The notes beneath the pieces are model-generated. The model was not told where the DNA came from. It saw nothing but the letters and a program-made list of their open reading frames with translations, and ran no database searches. Of a stretch of DNA of 64,000 bases, positions 14,769 through 57,015 are shown in pieces (positions within the stretch are counted from its first letter, which is position 1; each line of letters begins with the position of its first letter). The position numbers were made by a program, and so were the translations under genes. Origin of the DNA: Candidatus Methylomirabilota bacterium (GTDB lineage: Bacteria; Methylomirabilota; Methylomirabilia; Rokubacteriales; CSP1-6); assembly GCA_035457825.1 (NCBI GenBank), contig DATIAY010000171.1, positions 6,920 through 70,919 on the forward strand, in the 5' to 3' direction.

Positions 14769-16502
14769 TCAGGCGTGCGAGGGACCGGCGGTATCCTCGA
14801 CCCGCACGGGCGTCTGGCCCCGCAGGAAGTCGAAGTCGCATCCCTCGTTGGCCTGCAGGACGTGGTCGACAAAGAGCTTGCCGTAGCCACGCGTGAAGTG
14901 CGGCAGGCGAGGCCGCCAGGCCGCGCGCCGCCGGGCGAGCTCATCATCGCTGACTCGCAGGGTCAGCCGGCGCCCGGGCACATCGAGCTCGATCTGGTCG
15001 CCATCGCGGACCAGCGCCAGCGGTCCGCCGACCGCCGACTCGGGCGCCACGTGGAGAACCACTGTGCCGTAGGAGGTACCGCTCATCCGAGCATCCGAAA
15101 TGCGCACCATGTCTCGCACCCCTTGCCTCAGGAGCCGGGCGGGGATGGGGGCCGCCCCCCACTCGGGCATGCCCGGGGCGCCCCTGGGGCCGACATGCTT
15201 CAGCACGAGGACGGAGCGCTCGTCGATCGGCAGCGCGGGATCGTCGATCCGGCGGTGCAGGTCGGCGTGATCTTCGAAGACCACCGCGCGGCCGCGATGG
15301 GTGAGCAGTTCGGGCGAGGCCGCCGATTGTTTGAGCACGGCGCCGTCGGGGCACAGATTGCCGGTGAGCACGACCGTGCCGCCCTCCGGGGCCAGCGGCA
15401 CCGCGAGCGGCCGGATGACGTCATCGTTGTAACTCTTCGCGTCGCGAACGTTGTCGTTCAGCCTGGACCCGTTCACCGTCAGGACATCGCCGTGGAGCAG
15501 CGGGAGCAGCTCCTTGAGGACCACGGGCAACCCGCCGGCGTAGAAGAAGTCCTCCATGAGGTACTTGCCGGAGGGGCGCACGTTGACCAGCAGGGGAGTG
15601 CTTCGGGAAAGGGCATCGAACCGGGCGAGGGGCAGGGTCAGGCCCACCCGGCCGGCAATCGCCACCAGATGGATGATCGCGTTCGTCGATCCTCCTATCG
15701 CCATGTCGGCACGGATGGCATTGTCAAAAGCGTCCGCGGTCATGATCCGGGAGGGTCTTGGTCCGCCGGCCAGAGCCAACTCGACGGCCCGCCGTCCGGA
15801 GAGCTCGGCGAGGACGAGCCGCCGCGAGTCCGGGGCGGGAATCGCGGCGTTGCCGGGCAGCGTCATGCCGAGCGCCTCGGCCATGGCCGCCATGGTGGAC
15901 GCCGTGCCCATGACCATGCAGTGGCCAGATGACCGGGACATACAGGACTCGGCCTCGCACAGCTCCTCATCGGTGAGTCGCCCGGCGCGCCGCTCGCCCC
16001 ACAGCCGCCAGGCGTCGGTGCCCGATCCCAGCTCCTCGGTGCGCCACTTGCCACGCAGCATCGGGCCCCCGGTCACCATGATCGCGGGGATGTCGGCTGA
16101 AGCCGCGCCCATCAGCATGGCCGGCGTCGTCTTGTCGCAGCCCGACAGGAGTACCACTGCGTCCAGGGGGTAGGCCCGCAGGCACTCCTCCACGTCCATG
16201 GCCATCAGGTTCCGAAAGAGCATCGTGGTGGGCTTCATGAGGACCTCGCCCAGCGAGATCGTGGGAAACTCCAGCGGGAATCCGCCGGCGCTCCACACCC
16301 CACGCTTAACGGCCTCGGCCACCTGGCGGAGGTGGGCATTGCAGTTGGTGAGCTCGGACCAGGAGTTGGCGATGCCGACGACCGGGCGGCCGTCGAACAC
16401 GAGGTCGCTGAATCCCTCGGTCTTGAGCCACGAGCGGTGGACGAACCCGTCGAGGTCCCGGCGACCGAACCAGTTGCGGCTTCTGAGCGGCTGTGCTGTC
16501 AT
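14769..16502 (-). CDS. IlvD/EDD-family dehydratase (dihydroxy-acid or sugar-acid dehydratase)
   Basis: SRNWFG N-terminus, CDKTTPAML Fe-S cysteines, SGHCMVMGTA. Confidence 0.85.
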   Translation of the reverse strand: MTAQPLRSRNWFGRRDLDGFVHRSWLKTEGFSDLVFDGRPVVGIANSWSELTNCNAHLRQVAEAVKRGVWSAGGFPLEFPTISLGEVLMKPTTMLFRNLMAMDVEECLRAYPLDAVVLLSGCDKTTPAMLMGAASADIPAIMVTGGPMLRGKWRTEELGSGTDAWRLWGERRAGRLTDEELCEAESCMSRSSGHCMVMGTASTMAAMAEALGMTLPGNAAIPAPDSRRLVLAELSGRRAVELALAGGPRPSRIMTADAFDNAIRADMAIGGSTNAIIHLVAIAGRVGLTLPLARFDALSRSTPLLVNVRPSGKYLMEDFFYAGGLPVVLKELLPLLHGDVLTVNGSRLNDNVRDAKSYNDDVIRPLAVPLAPEGGTVVLTGNLCPDGAVLKQSAASPELLTHRGRAVVFEDHADLHRRIDDPALPIDERSVLVLKHVGPRGAPGMPEWGAAPIPARLLRQGVRDMVRISDARMSGTSYGTVVLHVAPESAVGGPLALVRDGDQIELDVPGRRLTLRVSDDELARRRAAWRPRLPHFTRGYGKLFVDHVLQANEGCDFDFLRGQTPVRVEDTAGPSHA

Positions 16503-16546
16503 GGGGCCTCCCGAAGGCTTGGATTATAGGAGATCGGAGGACGCGC

Positions 16547-17344
16547 ATGCGCTTGGCCGGCAAGGTCGCGATCGTCACAGGGGGAGGCAGTGGCATCGGG
16601 CGGGGGATCGCCATGGCACTGGCCCGCGAGGGTGCCGACGTGGCCATTCCCGACATCCAGGTTTTGAACGCGGAGAAGGTCTCCGACGAGATCAAGGGGC
16701 TAGGCCGAAAGGCGATGGCCATGAAGGCCGACGTGACCAGCTCCGCCGACGTCAAGACCATGGTCGATCGGACGCGCGAGTCCCTGGGCAAGATCGACAT
16801 CCTGGTGAACAACGCCGGTATGGCGGCCCCCCCGGGCATGCCCTTCACCAACAACACCGAGGACGACTGGGACCGGGCCTTCGCCGTCAACACCAAGTCG
16901 GTATTCCTCACGTGCAAGGCCGTGGCGCCCTACTTCATCGAGCGCAAGGCCGGGCGGATCATCAACATCGCGTCGATCGCCGGGCCGCTCGCGGCCGTCA
17001 CCATGCCGGCCTACAGCGTGGCCAAGCAGGGCGTGATCACGTTCACGCGCGTGGTGGCCAAGGAGCTGGCGGCGCACCGAATCACCGTGAACGCGATCTG
17101 CCCCGGCGTGTTGTGGACGGATTTCTGGCAGAAGCTCGCGGCCCACATCGCGCAGACCAATCCGGCCTTCGCAGGACTGACGCCCCGGCAGGTGTTCGAC
17201 AAGCGGGTCAGCGACATCGTGCCGATGAAATGTGAGCAGGAGCCAGAGGACATCGGCGCGGCTGCGGTCTTCCTGGCTTCAGACGAAGCGCGCTACATCA
17301 CCGGCCAGGCCCTCATGGTCGACGGCGGCTGCGTGATGTGGTAG
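16547..17344 (+). CDS. SDR-family oxidoreductase (FabG-like)
   Basis: TGGGSGIGRG cofactor motif, NNAG, YSVAK catalytic motif. GGAGG RBS 7 nt upstream of the ATG. Confidence 0.85.
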   Translation: MRLAGKVAIVTGGGSGIGRGIAMALAREGADVAIPDIQVLNAEKVSDEIKGLGRKAMAMKADVTSSADVKTMVDRTRESLGKIDILVNNAGMAAPPGMPFTNNTEDDWDRAFAVNTKSVFLTCKAVAPYFIERKAGRIINIASIAGPLAAVTMPAYSVAKQGVITFTRVVAKELAAHRITVNAICPGVLWTDFWQKLAAHIAQTNPAFAGLTPRQVFDKRVSDIVPMKCEQEPEDIGAAAVFLASDEARYITGQALMVDGGCVMW

Positions 17345-17462
17345 TGCGAGCCGAGGCGCGGCGGGCGGCGAGGCGAGCGGTGAGATGGTCGTGGTAGTGC
17401 GAGCTGAGGCGCGCTCGGGCGGCGAGGCGAGCGGTGAGATGATCGAAGTATGCGAGGGATGA
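17344..17462 (+). repeat. 2.5 tandem copies of a 53-nt unit after the SDR gene, forming TAGTG-overlapped mini-ORFs
   Basis: tgcgagc[ct]gaggcgcg...ggcgaggcgagcggtgagatg[ga]tcg..gta recurs at 17345, 17398 and 17451. Confidence 0.6.
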
Positions 17463-17487: not shown

Positions 17488-18666
17488 ATGGACTTCGATT
17501 TCACGCCAGAGCAGGAGGCGTTCCGCAAAGAGATCCGACAGTGGCTGGAGCGCACCCTGCCCGACGAGCTGCGCGGGCGGGGTTTTGCCGCATCCCGCGC
17601 CGACCAAGCGGAAGTCCGAAAGTTACGTACTTGGCAGCAGACGATGTACGAGGCCGGCTACGTCGGAATCGACTGGCCGCGCGAGTTTGGCGGGCGCGGG
17701 GCCACGCTCGTCGAGCAAATCATCCTGTACCAGGAGATGGCCCGTGCCGAGTCGCCCCAGCCCGTCAACCGGGGTGGGCTCTCGATGTTGGGCCCCACTC
17801 TGATGAAGTACGGCACCCCGGCCCAGCAGCAGAGATTCCTGCCTCGAATCCTGACGGCGGATGATCTCTGGTGTCAGGGTTTTTCCGAGCCGAACTCGGG
17901 ATCCGATCTGGCCAACCTCCAGACGCGGGCAGTGCGCGAAGGAGATGCGTTCGTCGTCACTGGCCAGAAGGTCTGGACGAGCATGGCTCACGTGGCTGAC
18001 TGGTGCTTCCTGCTCGTGCGGACCGACCCGCAGGTGGTCCGGCACAAGGGCATCAGCTTCCTGCTGGTCGACATGCGATCGCCGGGGATCACGGTGCGCC
18101 CCCTGCGCCAGATGACGGGAGAGGCCGAGTTCAACGAAGTGTTCTTCGACGGGGTGCGGGTCCCGGCCGAGAACCTGGTAGGCCGGCTTAATGAGGGGTG
18201 GTCGGTCGCCATCACCACGCTCGCCTATGAGCGCGACCTCCTCACCTTCATCCGGCATGTCTCGCTTCGCAACGCCGCCCAGCGGCTGGTGCGCCTCGTC
18301 CAGGAGCACGACCGGGCCTCCGAGCGGGCGCTCCGCCAGAAGATCGCAGGAATCTGGATCGGTGAGCAAGCGCTGCAGCTCAACGCCTACCGCAGCCTGA
18401 CGAAGATCCTGCGCGGCGGCCAGCCCGGACCGGAAGGCTCGACGTCCAAGCTCTTCTGGAGCCAGGTGGACCAGGAACTGGCCCAGGTGGCCACCGAGGT
18501 GCTCGGGCCCTTTTCCCAGCTCGCCGGCGGCTCGCCCTGGGCGCGTGACGACGGGCAGTGGGAGTTCTATGCGCTGCTGGCCCAGGCCAGCGGAATTCGA
18601 GCCGGCACATCGGAGATTCTCCGGAACATCCTGAGCGAGCGCGTGCTCGGGCTTCCCAAGGACTGA
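17488..18666 (+). CDS. acyl-CoA dehydrogenase
   Basis: 392 aa; ACAD N-terminal, middle and C-terminal domain motifs (FSEPNSGSD, QKVWTS). Confidence 0.85.
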   Translation: MDFDFTPEQEAFRKEIRQWLERTLPDELRGRGFAASRADQAEVRKLRTWQQTMYEAGYVGIDWPREFGGRGATLVEQIILYQEMARAESPQPVNRGGLSMLGPTLMKYGTPAQQQRFLPRILTADDLWCQGFSEPNSGSDLANLQTRAVREGDAFVVTGQKVWTSMAHVADWCFLLVRTDPQVVRHKGISFLLVDMRSPGITVRPLRQMTGEAEFNEVFFDGVRVPAENLVGRLNEGWSVAITTLAYERDLLTFIRHVSLRNAAQRLVRLVQEHDRASERALRQKIAGIWIGEQALQLNAYRSLTKILRGGQPGPEGSTSKLFWSQVDQELAQVATEVLGPFSQLAGGSPWARDDGQWEFYALLAQASGIRAGTSEILRNILSERVLGLPKD

Positions 18667-53620: not shown

Positions 53621-54920
<1,300 letters not shown>

Positions 54921-54924
<4 letters not shown>

Positions 54925-55520
54925 GCCGAGCGCTGCGCCAGGCCCGTGTGGAACGCAAGACGAAGGAGACCGAGGTGGCGATCAGCCTCAACCTCGACGG
55001 CACCGGTGCCGCCAAGGTCGGCACCCCGATCCCCTTCTTCAGCCACATGCTCGAGGCGTGGGCGAAGCACGGCCTCATGGACCTCACGGTGGAAGCGAGT
55101 GGGGACGTCGAGGTGGACATCCACCACACCGTCGAGGATGTCGGCATCGTGCTGGGACAGGCCCTCCGCGAGGCCTTCGGCGACAAGCGCGGCATCGTTC
55201 GCTACGGGACCGCCTTCGTGCCCATGGACGAGGCCCTCGTCGCGGCCGCCGTCGACATCTCGGGGCGCCCGTACCTCGTGTTCAACGTGCCGGTGGCCCG
55301 CACCCGGGTGGCCAACTTCGACCTCGACATGCTCCAGGAGTTCTTCCGGGCCTTCGCCTTCAATGCCGAGATCACCCTGCACGTGACCATGCATTACGGT
55401 CATAACCTGCACCACATCACGGAGGCCGTATTCAAGGCCGTGGGGCGGGCGCTGGCCGAGGCCAGCCGGATCAACCCTCGCATCGCCGACGTTCTGCCAT
55501 CGACCAAGGGACGCCTGTGA
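54921..55520 (+). CDS. hisB: imidazoleglycerol-phosphate dehydratase
   Basis: RKTKETEV N-terminus, and DIHHTVEDVGI / HYGHNLHH metal-binding motifs. Confidence 0.9.
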
Positions 55521-55652
55521 TGGTGGTCGTGCGAGCCGCAGGTGAAGGCGAGGTGAGCCTGTGATGGTGGTCGTGCGAGCCGCAGGTGAAGGCGAGGCGA
55601 GCCGGTGATGGTGGTCGTGCGAGCCGCAGGCGAAGGCGAGGCGAGCCGGTGA
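55520..55652 (+). repeat. three tandem 44-nt units, each a 14-codon mini-ORF (MVVVRAAGEGE-V/A-S-L/R), chained by TGATG overlaps from the hisB stop to the hisH GTG
   Basis: Units read directly at 55520-55564, 55564-55608 and 55608-55652. Period 44 = 45-1. Confidence 0.65.
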
Positions 55653-56308
55653 TCGCAATCATCGATTATGGCCGCGGCAACCTGGGTTCCGTGGAAAAGG
55701 CCTTCCAGCGGGTCGGTGTGCCGGCGACGGTCACCGAGGATCCGCGCGTCGTCGAGGACGCCGAGGCCGTGGTGCTCCCCGGGGACGGGGCGTTCCACGA
55801 CGCGATGGCCAATCTGGAGCAACTGGAGTTGCGGGCGCCGCTGTTGCGCGCCCTGGACGGGCGCCGGCCCTTCCTGGGAATCTGCCTGGGCTATCAGCTG
55901 CTGTTCTCGAGCAGCGAGGAGTTCGGCCAGGGCCGCGGGCTGGACGTCATCCCCGGCGTGGTGCGGCGGTTCCCGGCCGGCCGGAAGGTCCCGCACATGG
56001 GCTGGAATCGCGTCCACGGTGGCGGCGGGCTCCGGCTGTTCGAGGGGATCCCCGACGGCGCCCACTTCTACTTCGTCCACTCTTTTTATCCGGTTGTAGC
56101 GGGGGCCGCAAGCTCGGGTAGGACCGAGGGTGGCCGGCCCCCGGCGGCCGGAGCTCCGGAGGTGGCGTGGTGCGAGTACGGTGTGCGATTCGCGGCCGCC
56201 CTGGAGCGTGGGCGGATCTTCGCGACGCAGTTCCACCCCGAAAAGAGTCAGCGCTGGGGGCTGCGGCTCCTCGAGAACTTTGCCGCGCTCGTGAAGAGCG
56301 GCGGATGA
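55649..56308 (+). CDS. hisH: imidazole glycerol phosphate synthase, glutamine amidotransferase subunit
   Basis: IAIIDYGRGNL N-terminus, catalytic GICLGYQLL and HPEKS. GTG overlaps the last mini-ORF stop (GTGA). Confidence 0.85.
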   Translation: MIAIIDYGRGNLGSVEKAFQRVGVPATVTEDPRVVEDAEAVVLPGDGAFHDAMANLEQLELRAPLLRALDGRRPFLGICLGYQLLFSSSEEFGQGRGLDVIPGVVRRFPAGRKVPHMGWNRVHGGGGLRLFEGIPDGAHFYFVHSFYPVVAGAASSGRTEGGRPPAAGAPEVAWCEYGVRFAAALERGRIFATQFHPEKSQRWGLRLLENFAALVKSGG

Positions 56309-57015
56309 TCGTCATTCCGGCCGTCGACATCCGCGGCGGCCTCTGCGTGCGCCTGCGCGAGGGTCGGGCCGACCAGGAGACCGTGTTCTCCGCGGATCCG
56401 GTGACCGTGACCCGACGCTGGGTGGAACTTGGCGCCGAACGTCTGCATGTCGTCGATCTTGACGGGGCCCTGGGCAAACCCCGACAGATGGACGTGGTGC
56501 GCCGGGTCATCGAGGCCGCCGGGCCGGTCCCCGTGCAGGTGGGTGGAGGTCTCCGTGACGATGCGGCCGTGGCGGCGATGTTCAAAGCCGGGGCGCGCTG
56601 GGTGGTGCTCGGGACCCGGGCCCTCGATACCACGTTCCTGACCGGGACTTGCCAGAAGCACCCGGGGGGCATCATCGTCGCCGTTGACGGGCGCGGCTCG
56701 CGTGTGGCGGTGAAGGGTTGGACCGAAGTCGCCGAGGTGACGGTGATCGAGCTGGGCCGGCAGGCCCAGGCCGCGGGGGCGGCCGCGCTTCTGTACACGG
56801 ACGTCAGCCGGGATGGGACCGAGCAGGGGCCCAACGTGAAGGACACGGCGGCGCTGGCCGAGGCCGTCGGCATGCCCATTCTCGCCTCAGGCGGCGTGTC
56901 GAGCGTCGACGATCTCAGGGCGCTCGCCGCCGTTCCCGGAGTCGAGGGGGTGGTCGTCGGCCGCGCGCTGTATACCGGGGCCATCGATCTCCGCCAGGCA
57001 CTGGAAGCCGTCTAG
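56305..57015 (+). CDS. hisA: ProFAR isomerase
   Basis: IPAVDIRGG N-terminus. Confidence 0.9.
   Translation: MIVIPAVDIRGGLCVRLREGRADQETVFSADPVTVTRRWVELGAERLHVVDLDGALGKPRQMDVVRRVIEAAGPVPVQVGGGLRDDAAVAAMFKAGARWVVLGTRALDTTFLTGTCQKHPGGIIVAVDGRGSRVAVKGWTEVAEVTVIELGRQAQAAGAAALLYTDVSRDGTEQGPNVKDTAALAEAVGMPILASGGVSSVDDLRALAAVPGVEGVVVGRALYTGAIDLRQALEAV

Follow-up and report, generated by a model that had tools for sequence, protein, structure and literature searches.

The hisB and hisH genes in a 64,000-nt stretch of DNA from a Candidatus Methylomirabilota bacterium (here called the window) are separated by three tandem copies of a short unit. Each copy forms a miniature open reading frame (mini-ORF) whose stop codon overlaps the start of the next. 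The locus raises the question of whether this arrangement is a device built for translational coupling or a repeat that has entered the operon and is tolerated there. We consider it probable that the spacer is a three-copy tandem array (variable number tandem repeat, VNTR) of a 44-nt unit from a dispersed, Rokubacteria-specific repeat, which combines the anatomy of GTAG-tagged repetitive extragenic palindromic (REP) elements with the behavior of mycobacterial interspersed repetitive units (MIRUs). Sequence comparisons give good support to selection for translational coupling, in the sense of a constraint under which a repeat inserts and amplifies and not of a purpose-built device.

The hisB gene (imidazoleglycerol-phosphate dehydratase; Pfam PF00475, E=1.4e-65) was defined by its ORF and translation at 54921..55520 on the forward strand and ends with the stop codon TGA at 55518-55520. 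Tandem Repeats Finder (TRF) reported the spacer array (55517-55652) with a period of 44 nt, 3.2 copies, 96% matches and a score of 254, and the 20-mer GTGGTCGTGCGAGCCGCAGG occurs three times against an expectation of 0.06. Each unit reads ATG GTG GTC GTG CGA GCC GCA GG(T/C) GAA GGC GAG G(T/C)G AGC C(T/G)G TGA and encodes MVVVRAAGEGE(V/A)S(L/R)*, which gives mini-ORFs of 14-15 codons; adjacent units have the A of TGATG in common. All three mini-ORFs lie on the forward strand and were identified from the sequence, TRF and a chain walk. Mini-ORF 1 (55517..55564; unit 1, 55517-55560) has two possible starts, GTG 55517 (GTGA overlap with the stop of hisB) and ATG 55520 (TGATG overlap), and encodes the peptide V-MVVVRAAGEGEVSL before stopping at TGA 55562-55564. 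Mini-ORF 2 (55561..55608; unit 2, 55561-55604) starts at GTG 55561 or ATG 55564 and stops at TGA 55606-55608. Mini-ORF 3 (55605..55652; unit 3, 55605-55648) starts at GTG 55605 or ATG 55608 and stops at TGA 55650-55652, overlapping the GTG of hisH. A Shine-Dalgarno (SD)-like GAGG is found in each unit (55550-55553, 55594-55597 and 55638-55641), exactly 7 nt 5' of every following GTG, that of hisH included. The end of hisB has a native SD-like motif, AAGGGA at 55506-55511, 5 nt 5' of GTG 55517.

The hisH gene encodes the glutamine amidotransferase (GATase) subunit (Pfam PF00117) and was placed at 55649..56308 on the forward strand by junction comparison. From GTG 55649 the protein begins VIAIIDYG..., the same N terminus as in HisH of insert-free relatives. 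A longer ORF in the hisH frame (55586-56308) has a GTG start inside unit 2 and would add 21 repeat-encoded residues, an N-terminal extension that gene callers could give to HisH. An exact-protein look-up found neither the short-start nor the long-start HisH on record.

A first-pass annotation of this DNA had described three identical 44-nt units chained by their stop and start codons. The tandem arrangement and the chaining are borne out by the sequence and by TRF; the units differ at 3-4 positions and are not identical. The annotation was right that the hisB TGA (55518-55520) overlaps the first ATG (55520) and that the third TGA (55650-55652) overlaps the hisH GTG (55649). The ATG codons that it took as starts (55520, 55564 and 55608) are also present, but each is only the second codon, the GTG one codon earlier being a possible start as well. 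It is the GTGA (-4) overlap at 55517, 55561 and 55605, rather than the ATG overlap, that is conserved in relatives: two other contigs with an identical HisB have the ATG one codon further on (GTG ATC ATG GTC...) and keep both the GTGA overlap and the 44-nt period. The remark that a 3n-1 period automatically keeps each copy in phase is true but trivial, the units being copies with their own start and stop. A scan of 54800-56400 found no promoter-like or terminator-like site in the spacer, which rules it out as an internal promoter or intrinsic terminator. Rfam gave no match, either for the whole window at gathering thresholds or for the spacer at E<=1, so the array belongs to no described RNA family; blastn found no match to it among the plasmids of PLSDB.

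Comparison of hisB-hisH junctions in relatives, a check proposed with the first-pass annotation, revealed empty, one-unit and two-unit states in which the chain is preserved. A metagenome scan with HisB gave 80 loci (designated L and a number) at 73-91% identity. At 15 of these the junction is empty and the genes overlap by 4 nt (...CTG TGATCGC...), with the hisB TGA lying within the GTG-A of hisH; this plain GTGA overlap appears to be the ancestral state. Short gaps of 0-14 nt separate the genes at about 37 loci. Roughly 16 loci carry one unit and two carry two units, the three-unit state being that of the window, and four have other inserts of 124-202 nt. Short spacers with sequences such as CTGTGAGCCTATGATCGCC or ...GGCGAGCCAGTGATT correspond to the final 10-15 nt of the element, and we infer that they are deletion remnants of earlier insertions (gaps of 4-13 nt; L079, L081-L084, L094, L099, L101, L071 and L090).

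At filled junctions, the hisH start region is doubled over 5-16 nt and the two copies flank the element (e.g., GTGATTGCCGTC ... ATGATTGCCGTC). The one on the left still overlaps the stop of hisB and serves as the start of a mini-ORF, in which the element is read as (V)RAAAEGEASL (frame GTG CGA GCC). This mini-ORF stops at a TGA that overlaps the copy on the right, and it is this second copy that acts as the hisH start. The distance between the old and the new start is 41, 44, 47 or 50 nt for one unit and 89 nt for two, all 2 mod 3. The exception is L077, at 45 nt, where the old start is in frame with hisH; no junction is at 1 mod 3. Among the 21 inserts of at least 30 nt, 20 keep a chain that connects the stop of hisB with the start of hisH, and L077 is an in-frame fusion. 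An automated walk that allowed -4 and -1 overlaps only confirmed 16 of these 20 chains, and the others were followed by eye (L110, L118, L119, with TAG directly then GTG; L137, with TAGTG into hisH). Single ORFs of 50-69 codons bridge the inserts of 148-202 nt in L133, L134 and L135. The insert of L135 is a composite repeat that includes the element core, and those of L133 and L134 are of unrelated sequence. In L133 (148 nt, 50 codons) and L134 (202 nt, 69 codons), no family unit was detected, and the ORF overlaps the hisB stop and forms an ATGA overlap with hisH. These two loci suggest that the coupling path is kept whatever is inserted.

Filled and empty junctions interleave in the HisB tree (L064-L065, L067-L075, L110-L113, L118/L119-L115 and L091/L088-L078) and insertion points vary between clades, which together indicate at least about seven events of filling or emptying at this junction. 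Across 228 kb of his-operon DNA, 17-18 of 22 arrays lie at the hisB-hisH junction, whose sequence, CTGTGATC, is the usual 3' end of the element. Degenerate family units also occur at the hisH-hisA junction of L116 (2160-2300), just 5' of MLVIPAVDLKGG, so other junctions of the his operon can be occupied too.

Copy number thus differs among close relatives while the chain is kept, and an SD-like GAGG recurs in every unit at a constant spacing of 7 nt. Both observations would suit an adaptive rheostat in which each relay step lowers reinitiation, so that the HisH:HisB ratio is set by the number of units (0-3 or more) in a manner akin to phase variation. We nevertheless regard a rheostat as unlikely. 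The direct GTGA overlap is the commonest and apparently the ancestral state, filled states are patchy in the HisB tree, and the element occurs at many unrelated junctions. This patchiness and breadth fit a spreading repeat better than locus-specific regulation.

The extent of the family was determined by scanning one genome per species (185,579 species representatives) with the pattern TGGTNGTGCGAGC-N6-36-GGCGAGGCGAGC. The exact pattern was found at 58 loci, all of them in Candidatus Rokubacteria/Methylomirabilota metagenome-assembled genomes (MAGs) and often at several unrelated loci per MAG. Units were detected with nhmmer profiles over the 58 loci and the window, a loose regular expression having been dropped after it gave 33 matches in shuffles; this yielded 117 units in 69 arrays. 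The arrays have periods of 42-58 nt and copy numbers of 1-5. Counts for 67 arrays (L001 and L002 were left out) comprise 40 arrays with one copy, 15 with two, seven with three, three with four and two with five. Array density away from the seed sites is about 1 per 30-60 kb, which extrapolates to roughly 100-200 arrays per genome. We found no paper on the intergenic repeats of Rokubacteria. Periods of multi-copy arrays were tallied by eye with orthologous loci counted once: they are 2 mod 3 at about 16 loci (44, 53 and 56 nt), 0 mod 3 at five (42, 45 and 51 nt) and 1 mod 3 at three (43, 46 and 58 nt). Such a tabulation had been suggested in the first-pass annotation; the 2 mod 3 class is indeed the commonest, but the bias carries no independent weight, as units of the short subclass are natively 44 nt long.

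The arrays also vary on a fine scale. L029 and L056, from the same MAG (AR41), have near-identical flanks with three and two units, respectively, and L076 and L077 have near-identical flanks with two units and one; these one-unit differences point to copy-number polymorphism within populations. Tandem copies invite the suspicion that three units were produced by repeat mis-assembly and that the real locus has fewer or more. Assemblers do struggle here, as both of the short-read contigs with an identical HisB terminate within the array. An artefact is nonetheless highly improbable, since the three units are anchored by their 3-4 differing positions and arrays of 2-5 units are found in many independent assemblies, long contigs included.

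The element shows a strong preference in position and polarity. The upstream flank is coding on the strand of the element in 64 of 69 arrays, and of 54 downstream flanks that allowed scoring, 51 run in the same direction. The copies of multi-copy arrays are without exception head-to-tail; only in L049 do two elements lie on opposite strands, and these go with two convergent genes. The upstream gene of 36 arrays stops at the TAG of the 5' tag (...TGG TAG), so those 36 proteins end in Trp. The upstream gene has its own stop no more than 30 nt 5' of the element in 12 arrays and reads into the element in 10, where it mostly stops at the terminal TGA. Relative to the element, the upstream ORF uses the TGG-TAG frame in 48 cases, the GTG-CGA-GCC frame in nine and the third frame, which leads into the downstream gene, in four (n=61). 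Where the upstream gene has its own stop, 11 of 12 arrays lie in the sole frame that lets the overlapped start reach the terminal TGA, against one third by chance. In about 17 arrays, the downstream gene begins with the GTG or ATG contained in the terminal NTGA.

These frame data bear on whether the repeat is ordinary coding sequence, with hisH starting at GTG 55586 to give the 21-residue extension, or with functional 14-residue peptides. The longer ORF is open in the hisH frame, the old start of L077 is in frame with hisH and nine arrays elsewhere are read as C-terminal tails of the upstream gene. Against this, HisH of empty-site relatives begins exactly at (V/M)IAI, and the frame in which the element is read changes from locus to locus, which leaves no conserved peptide. 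We consider a coding role very improbable.

Several orthologous gene ends carry the element in 4-6 species each: the 3' end of nuoK (L005, L012, L020 and L022), a gene ending RLEW* (L003, L008, L019, L030, L038 and L040) and a gene ending KRTW* with a CPHGRP motif (L007, L013, L028 and L037), presumably mutL. The apical hairpins differ between species, and the proteins all end in an extra Trp followed by TAG. Either these ends are hot spots that have been hit repeatedly or the elements are old and have evolved in place.

The chain seen at hisB-hisH was examined across the family in the 51 arrays with co-directional flanks. A relay was scored when unbroken -4 (NTGA) or -1 (TGATG, TAGTG) overlaps led from the upstream stop into the frame of the downstream gene, and mononucleotide shuffles and Altschul-Erickson dinucleotide shuffles, held to the same downstream frame, served as controls. 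Overlap-only chains were observed in 25 arrays, compared with 6.5 +/- 1.35 in mononucleotide and 14.5 +/- 2.2 in dinucleotide shuffles. When gaps of up to 15 nt were allowed, 39 chains were observed against 16.5 and 25.8, respectively. The relay is enriched in the family, yet it is not universal.

From 5' to 3', the element consists of the tag (T)GGTAG, an imperfect hairpin, an arm GAGGCGAGC(C) and the end (T/G)(G/A)TGA; an SD-like GAGG is a further part, 5' of the terminal (G/A)TGA. The first unit carries GTAG in 46 of 65 cases, although its position was unconstrained in the search pattern. The hairpin has the layout GC-[GA/GA]-GCC-[GA or GCA/GA]-apical stem-loop, with ten pairs broken by GA/GA loops. 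The apical part is GCC GNN GGC in the 44-nt class; examples from the class of about 53 nt are GCCGT-TCG-ACGGC, GCCCCT-TAG-AGGGGC and GCCGG-TTCCT-CCGGC. In a set of 15 different units of the long class, pairing holds for 94% of cells; column shuffles give 85%, with none of 500 attaining 94%, and sliding the partners gives 27-38%. At the apex, two pairs swap GC for CG, in four and six sequences, and a C-to-U change in four sequences keeps a G-U pair. The outer (arm) pairs are invariant owing to the way in which the sequences were collected. Taken together, these patterns provide moderate support for a hairpin.

Conservation of the layout, together with the compensatory GC-CG swaps and the preserved G-U pairs, could mean that the element is mainly an RNA or DNA structure, a REP-like hairpin whose mini-ORFs are a by-product of GTG- and TGA-rich, G+C-rich sequence. 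Such a structure might stabilize or process the upstream mRNA, stall terminating ribosomes or bind a protein. Its place right after stop codons in sense orientation, as for GTAG REPs (PMC3733652), would agree with this. We judge an essentially structural element to be quite unlikely. Folding energies are no better than those of shuffles (see below), the window units have lost apical pairs and kept the ORF, and the mod-3 insert lengths (41, 44, 47, 50 and 89 nt), with the ORF bridges over other inserts, are reading-frame signals beyond structure. Structural and reading-frame roles are not mutually exclusive.

These comparisons show that the repeat enters gene boundaries one way round, duplicates the downstream start and persists only where a translatable path remains. 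The two junction copies would then allow unequal recombination or replication slippage to amplify a 44-nt segment made up of the element and one junction copy, and each new unit would inherit its start, GAGG and overlapping stop unchanged. A ribosome that ends hisB would reinitiate on mini-ORFs 1, 2 and 3 in turn and then on hisH, and de novo initiation at each GAGG-N7-GTG may help or supplement reinitiation. The relay would let the insertion persist without cutting hisH off from translation, and it would bring no gain over the direct overlap. Since the direct overlap is ancestral and commonest, the relay is probably a cost that the repeat must pay to be admitted. Both ideas put forward in the first-pass annotation find support here. 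A replicating element that duplicates the stop/start junction accords with the dispersed family, recovered when the unit was searched for in other genomes with many arrays showing stop/start overlaps, and with the 5-16-nt duplication of the hisH start at filled compared with empty sites. Selection for translational coupling accords with the ORF chain kept at 20 of 21 filled hisB-hisH junctions and the 25 of 51 arrays family-wide, where 6.5-14.5 were expected.

The route of spread could be RAYT-like single-stranded DNA (ssDNA) transposition (RAYT, REP-associated tyrosine transposase) or templated insertion by microhomology to ...CTGTGAT. The GTAG tag and the hairpin suggest the former chemistry; the identity of the target with the 3' end of the element suggests the latter. 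A bolder proposal is a self-compensating mobile element that homes to NTGA junctions between translationally coupled genes and rebuilds the stop, SD motif and start on both sides, which would keep the ribosome hand-over intact; tandem amplification would then leave 0-5 reinitiation steps that the host could use to set operon ratios. Homing of this kind might proceed by homology to the element's own 3' end (...CTGTGAT), independently of RAYT. We find the proposal as a whole doubtful.

Several points weigh against a dispersed, coupling-preserving repeat with GTAG-REP anatomy as the source of the spacer. About half of the arrays lack a complete overlap-only chain, so coupling is no universal property of the element. 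GTG is frequent in DNA of 70% G+C, and dinucleotide shuffles alone yield 14.5 chains. The counts include many orthologous loci and thus overstate the number of independent events. Whether single units, the whole array or 51 distinct central segments are folded, the energy is no better than that of shuffles (z of 0 to -1.1). The window's hisB-hisH units have the tag GTCG rather than GTAG and the apical stem GGT GAA GGC rather than GCC GAA GGC; they are decayed copies. A search of 707 kb of Rokubacteria DNA with E. coli RayT (tblastn) gave no match, although its power is low, and a classical transposase with a fixed-length target-site duplication was rejected, as the duplication varies from about 5 to 16 nt.

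The window contains a second array of the family, on the forward strand at 17338..17440, found by TRF and nhmmer. It belongs to the long subclass, has a period of 53 nt with two units and a degenerate third, and shares the arms GTGGTAGTGCGAGC and GGCGAGGCGAGC with the spacer array. It lies between ORFs at 16493-17344 and 17488-18666, and the upstream ORF ends on the TAG (17342-17344) of the array's TGGTAG tag. Its chain runs through TAGTG, TAGTG and ATGA, followed by an 11-nt gap to the downstream ATG. Orthologous junctions carry two units, the second degenerate, in L004 and one unit in L006.

Other repeats were noted in passing. The composite repeat at the hisB-hisH junction of L135 (1240-1460) has two copies of about 80 nt, each made of the element core and a second conserved segment, ...AGAATCCTAAATTGACCGCCCGGGAAGAGCGGAACCCGGAAG. 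A motif like that of this segment, AATCCTAAATT, follows the array in L003, and the same holds downstream of the arrays in L012 and L022; the segment may represent a second, associated repeat family. At 633-766 of the window, right after the TGA of a gene (about 623-625), there is an unrelated 68-nt tandem repeat of 2.0 copies with 98% identity, which may be a member of another repeat family.

The hisB-hisH junctions form a natural series of states (0, 1, 2 and 3 units and other inserts). This series and the occurrence in an uncultured phylum are new; the logic of MIRUs was already known. The series may be read as unusually clean evolutionary evidence that termination-reinitiation coupling between neighboring genes is under selection, and its natural alleles are ready-made constructs for measuring the efficiency of reinitiation per step. 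On the practical side, the arrays break short-read assemblies and mislead gene callers, through extended HisH starts, spurious C-terminal tails and Trp-TAG ends on many proteins. They could be used as VNTR markers for Rokubacteria populations.

MIRUs are 40-100-bp direct tandem repeats that are intergenic, have one orientation to transcription and contain small ORFs (PMC5056196). They are thought, in the account that PMC12548453 gives with citation of Supply et al. (1997), to insert at start codons, with the internal ORF coupled at -4 nt. The Rokubacteria family likewise forms direct tandem arrays of variable copy number at operon junctions in one orientation, and the ends of its mini-ORFs overlap the flanking stop and start codons with -4 coupling, though not in all arrays. 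It differs in its GTAG tag and its imperfect hairpin with covarying apical pairs, MIRUs being described as without obvious palindromes, and in that it often supplies the upstream stop (TGG TAG). The hosts are also different (Methylomirabilota/Rokubacteria as opposed to Actinobacteria), and the comparison is one of descriptions.

GTAG-tagged REPs, which are thought to be mobilized by RAYT, have an unpaired GTAG, next to which lies a 20-40-nt stem-loop rich in G+C (Di Nocera et al., 2013, PMC3733652). According to the same study, they lie just 3' of ORFs, between unidirectional or convergent genes, and their TAG is often the stop codon; they are reiterated head-to-tail along with DNA from their flanks, and some copies form the tails of proteins. 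The Rokubacteria family shares the end tag, the dispersed copies 3' of ORFs, the TAG stop, the head-to-tail arrays and the occasional protein tails. In contrast, its stem is broken by two GA-rich internal loops and has more mismatches than REP surveys usually accept, and we saw no inverted (head-head or tail-tail) dimers or BIME-like clusters (BIME, bacterial interspersed mosaic element) among the 69 arrays. Its 3' end has an SD-like motif and an NTGA junction, and it is under strong reading-frame constraints, whereas PMC3733652 describes none for GTAG REPs.

Rickettsia palindromic elements (RPEs) and other REPs insert in frame into genes, as summarized in PMC3733652. On the basis of that summary, the resemblance is that small repeats are tolerated only where reading frames survive and that some copies become parts of proteins; the difference is that RPEs lie inside coding regions, whereas the Rokubacteria family occupies gene boundaries and preserves stop/start overlaps. 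MIRU-style repeats that preserve coupling are not peculiar to mycobacteria: an unrelated, uncultured soil phylum has an abundant family of them, with REP hallmarks in addition. By analogy with these systems, the Rokubacteria repeat is best described as a new family that would work like a MIRU and looks like a GTAG REP.

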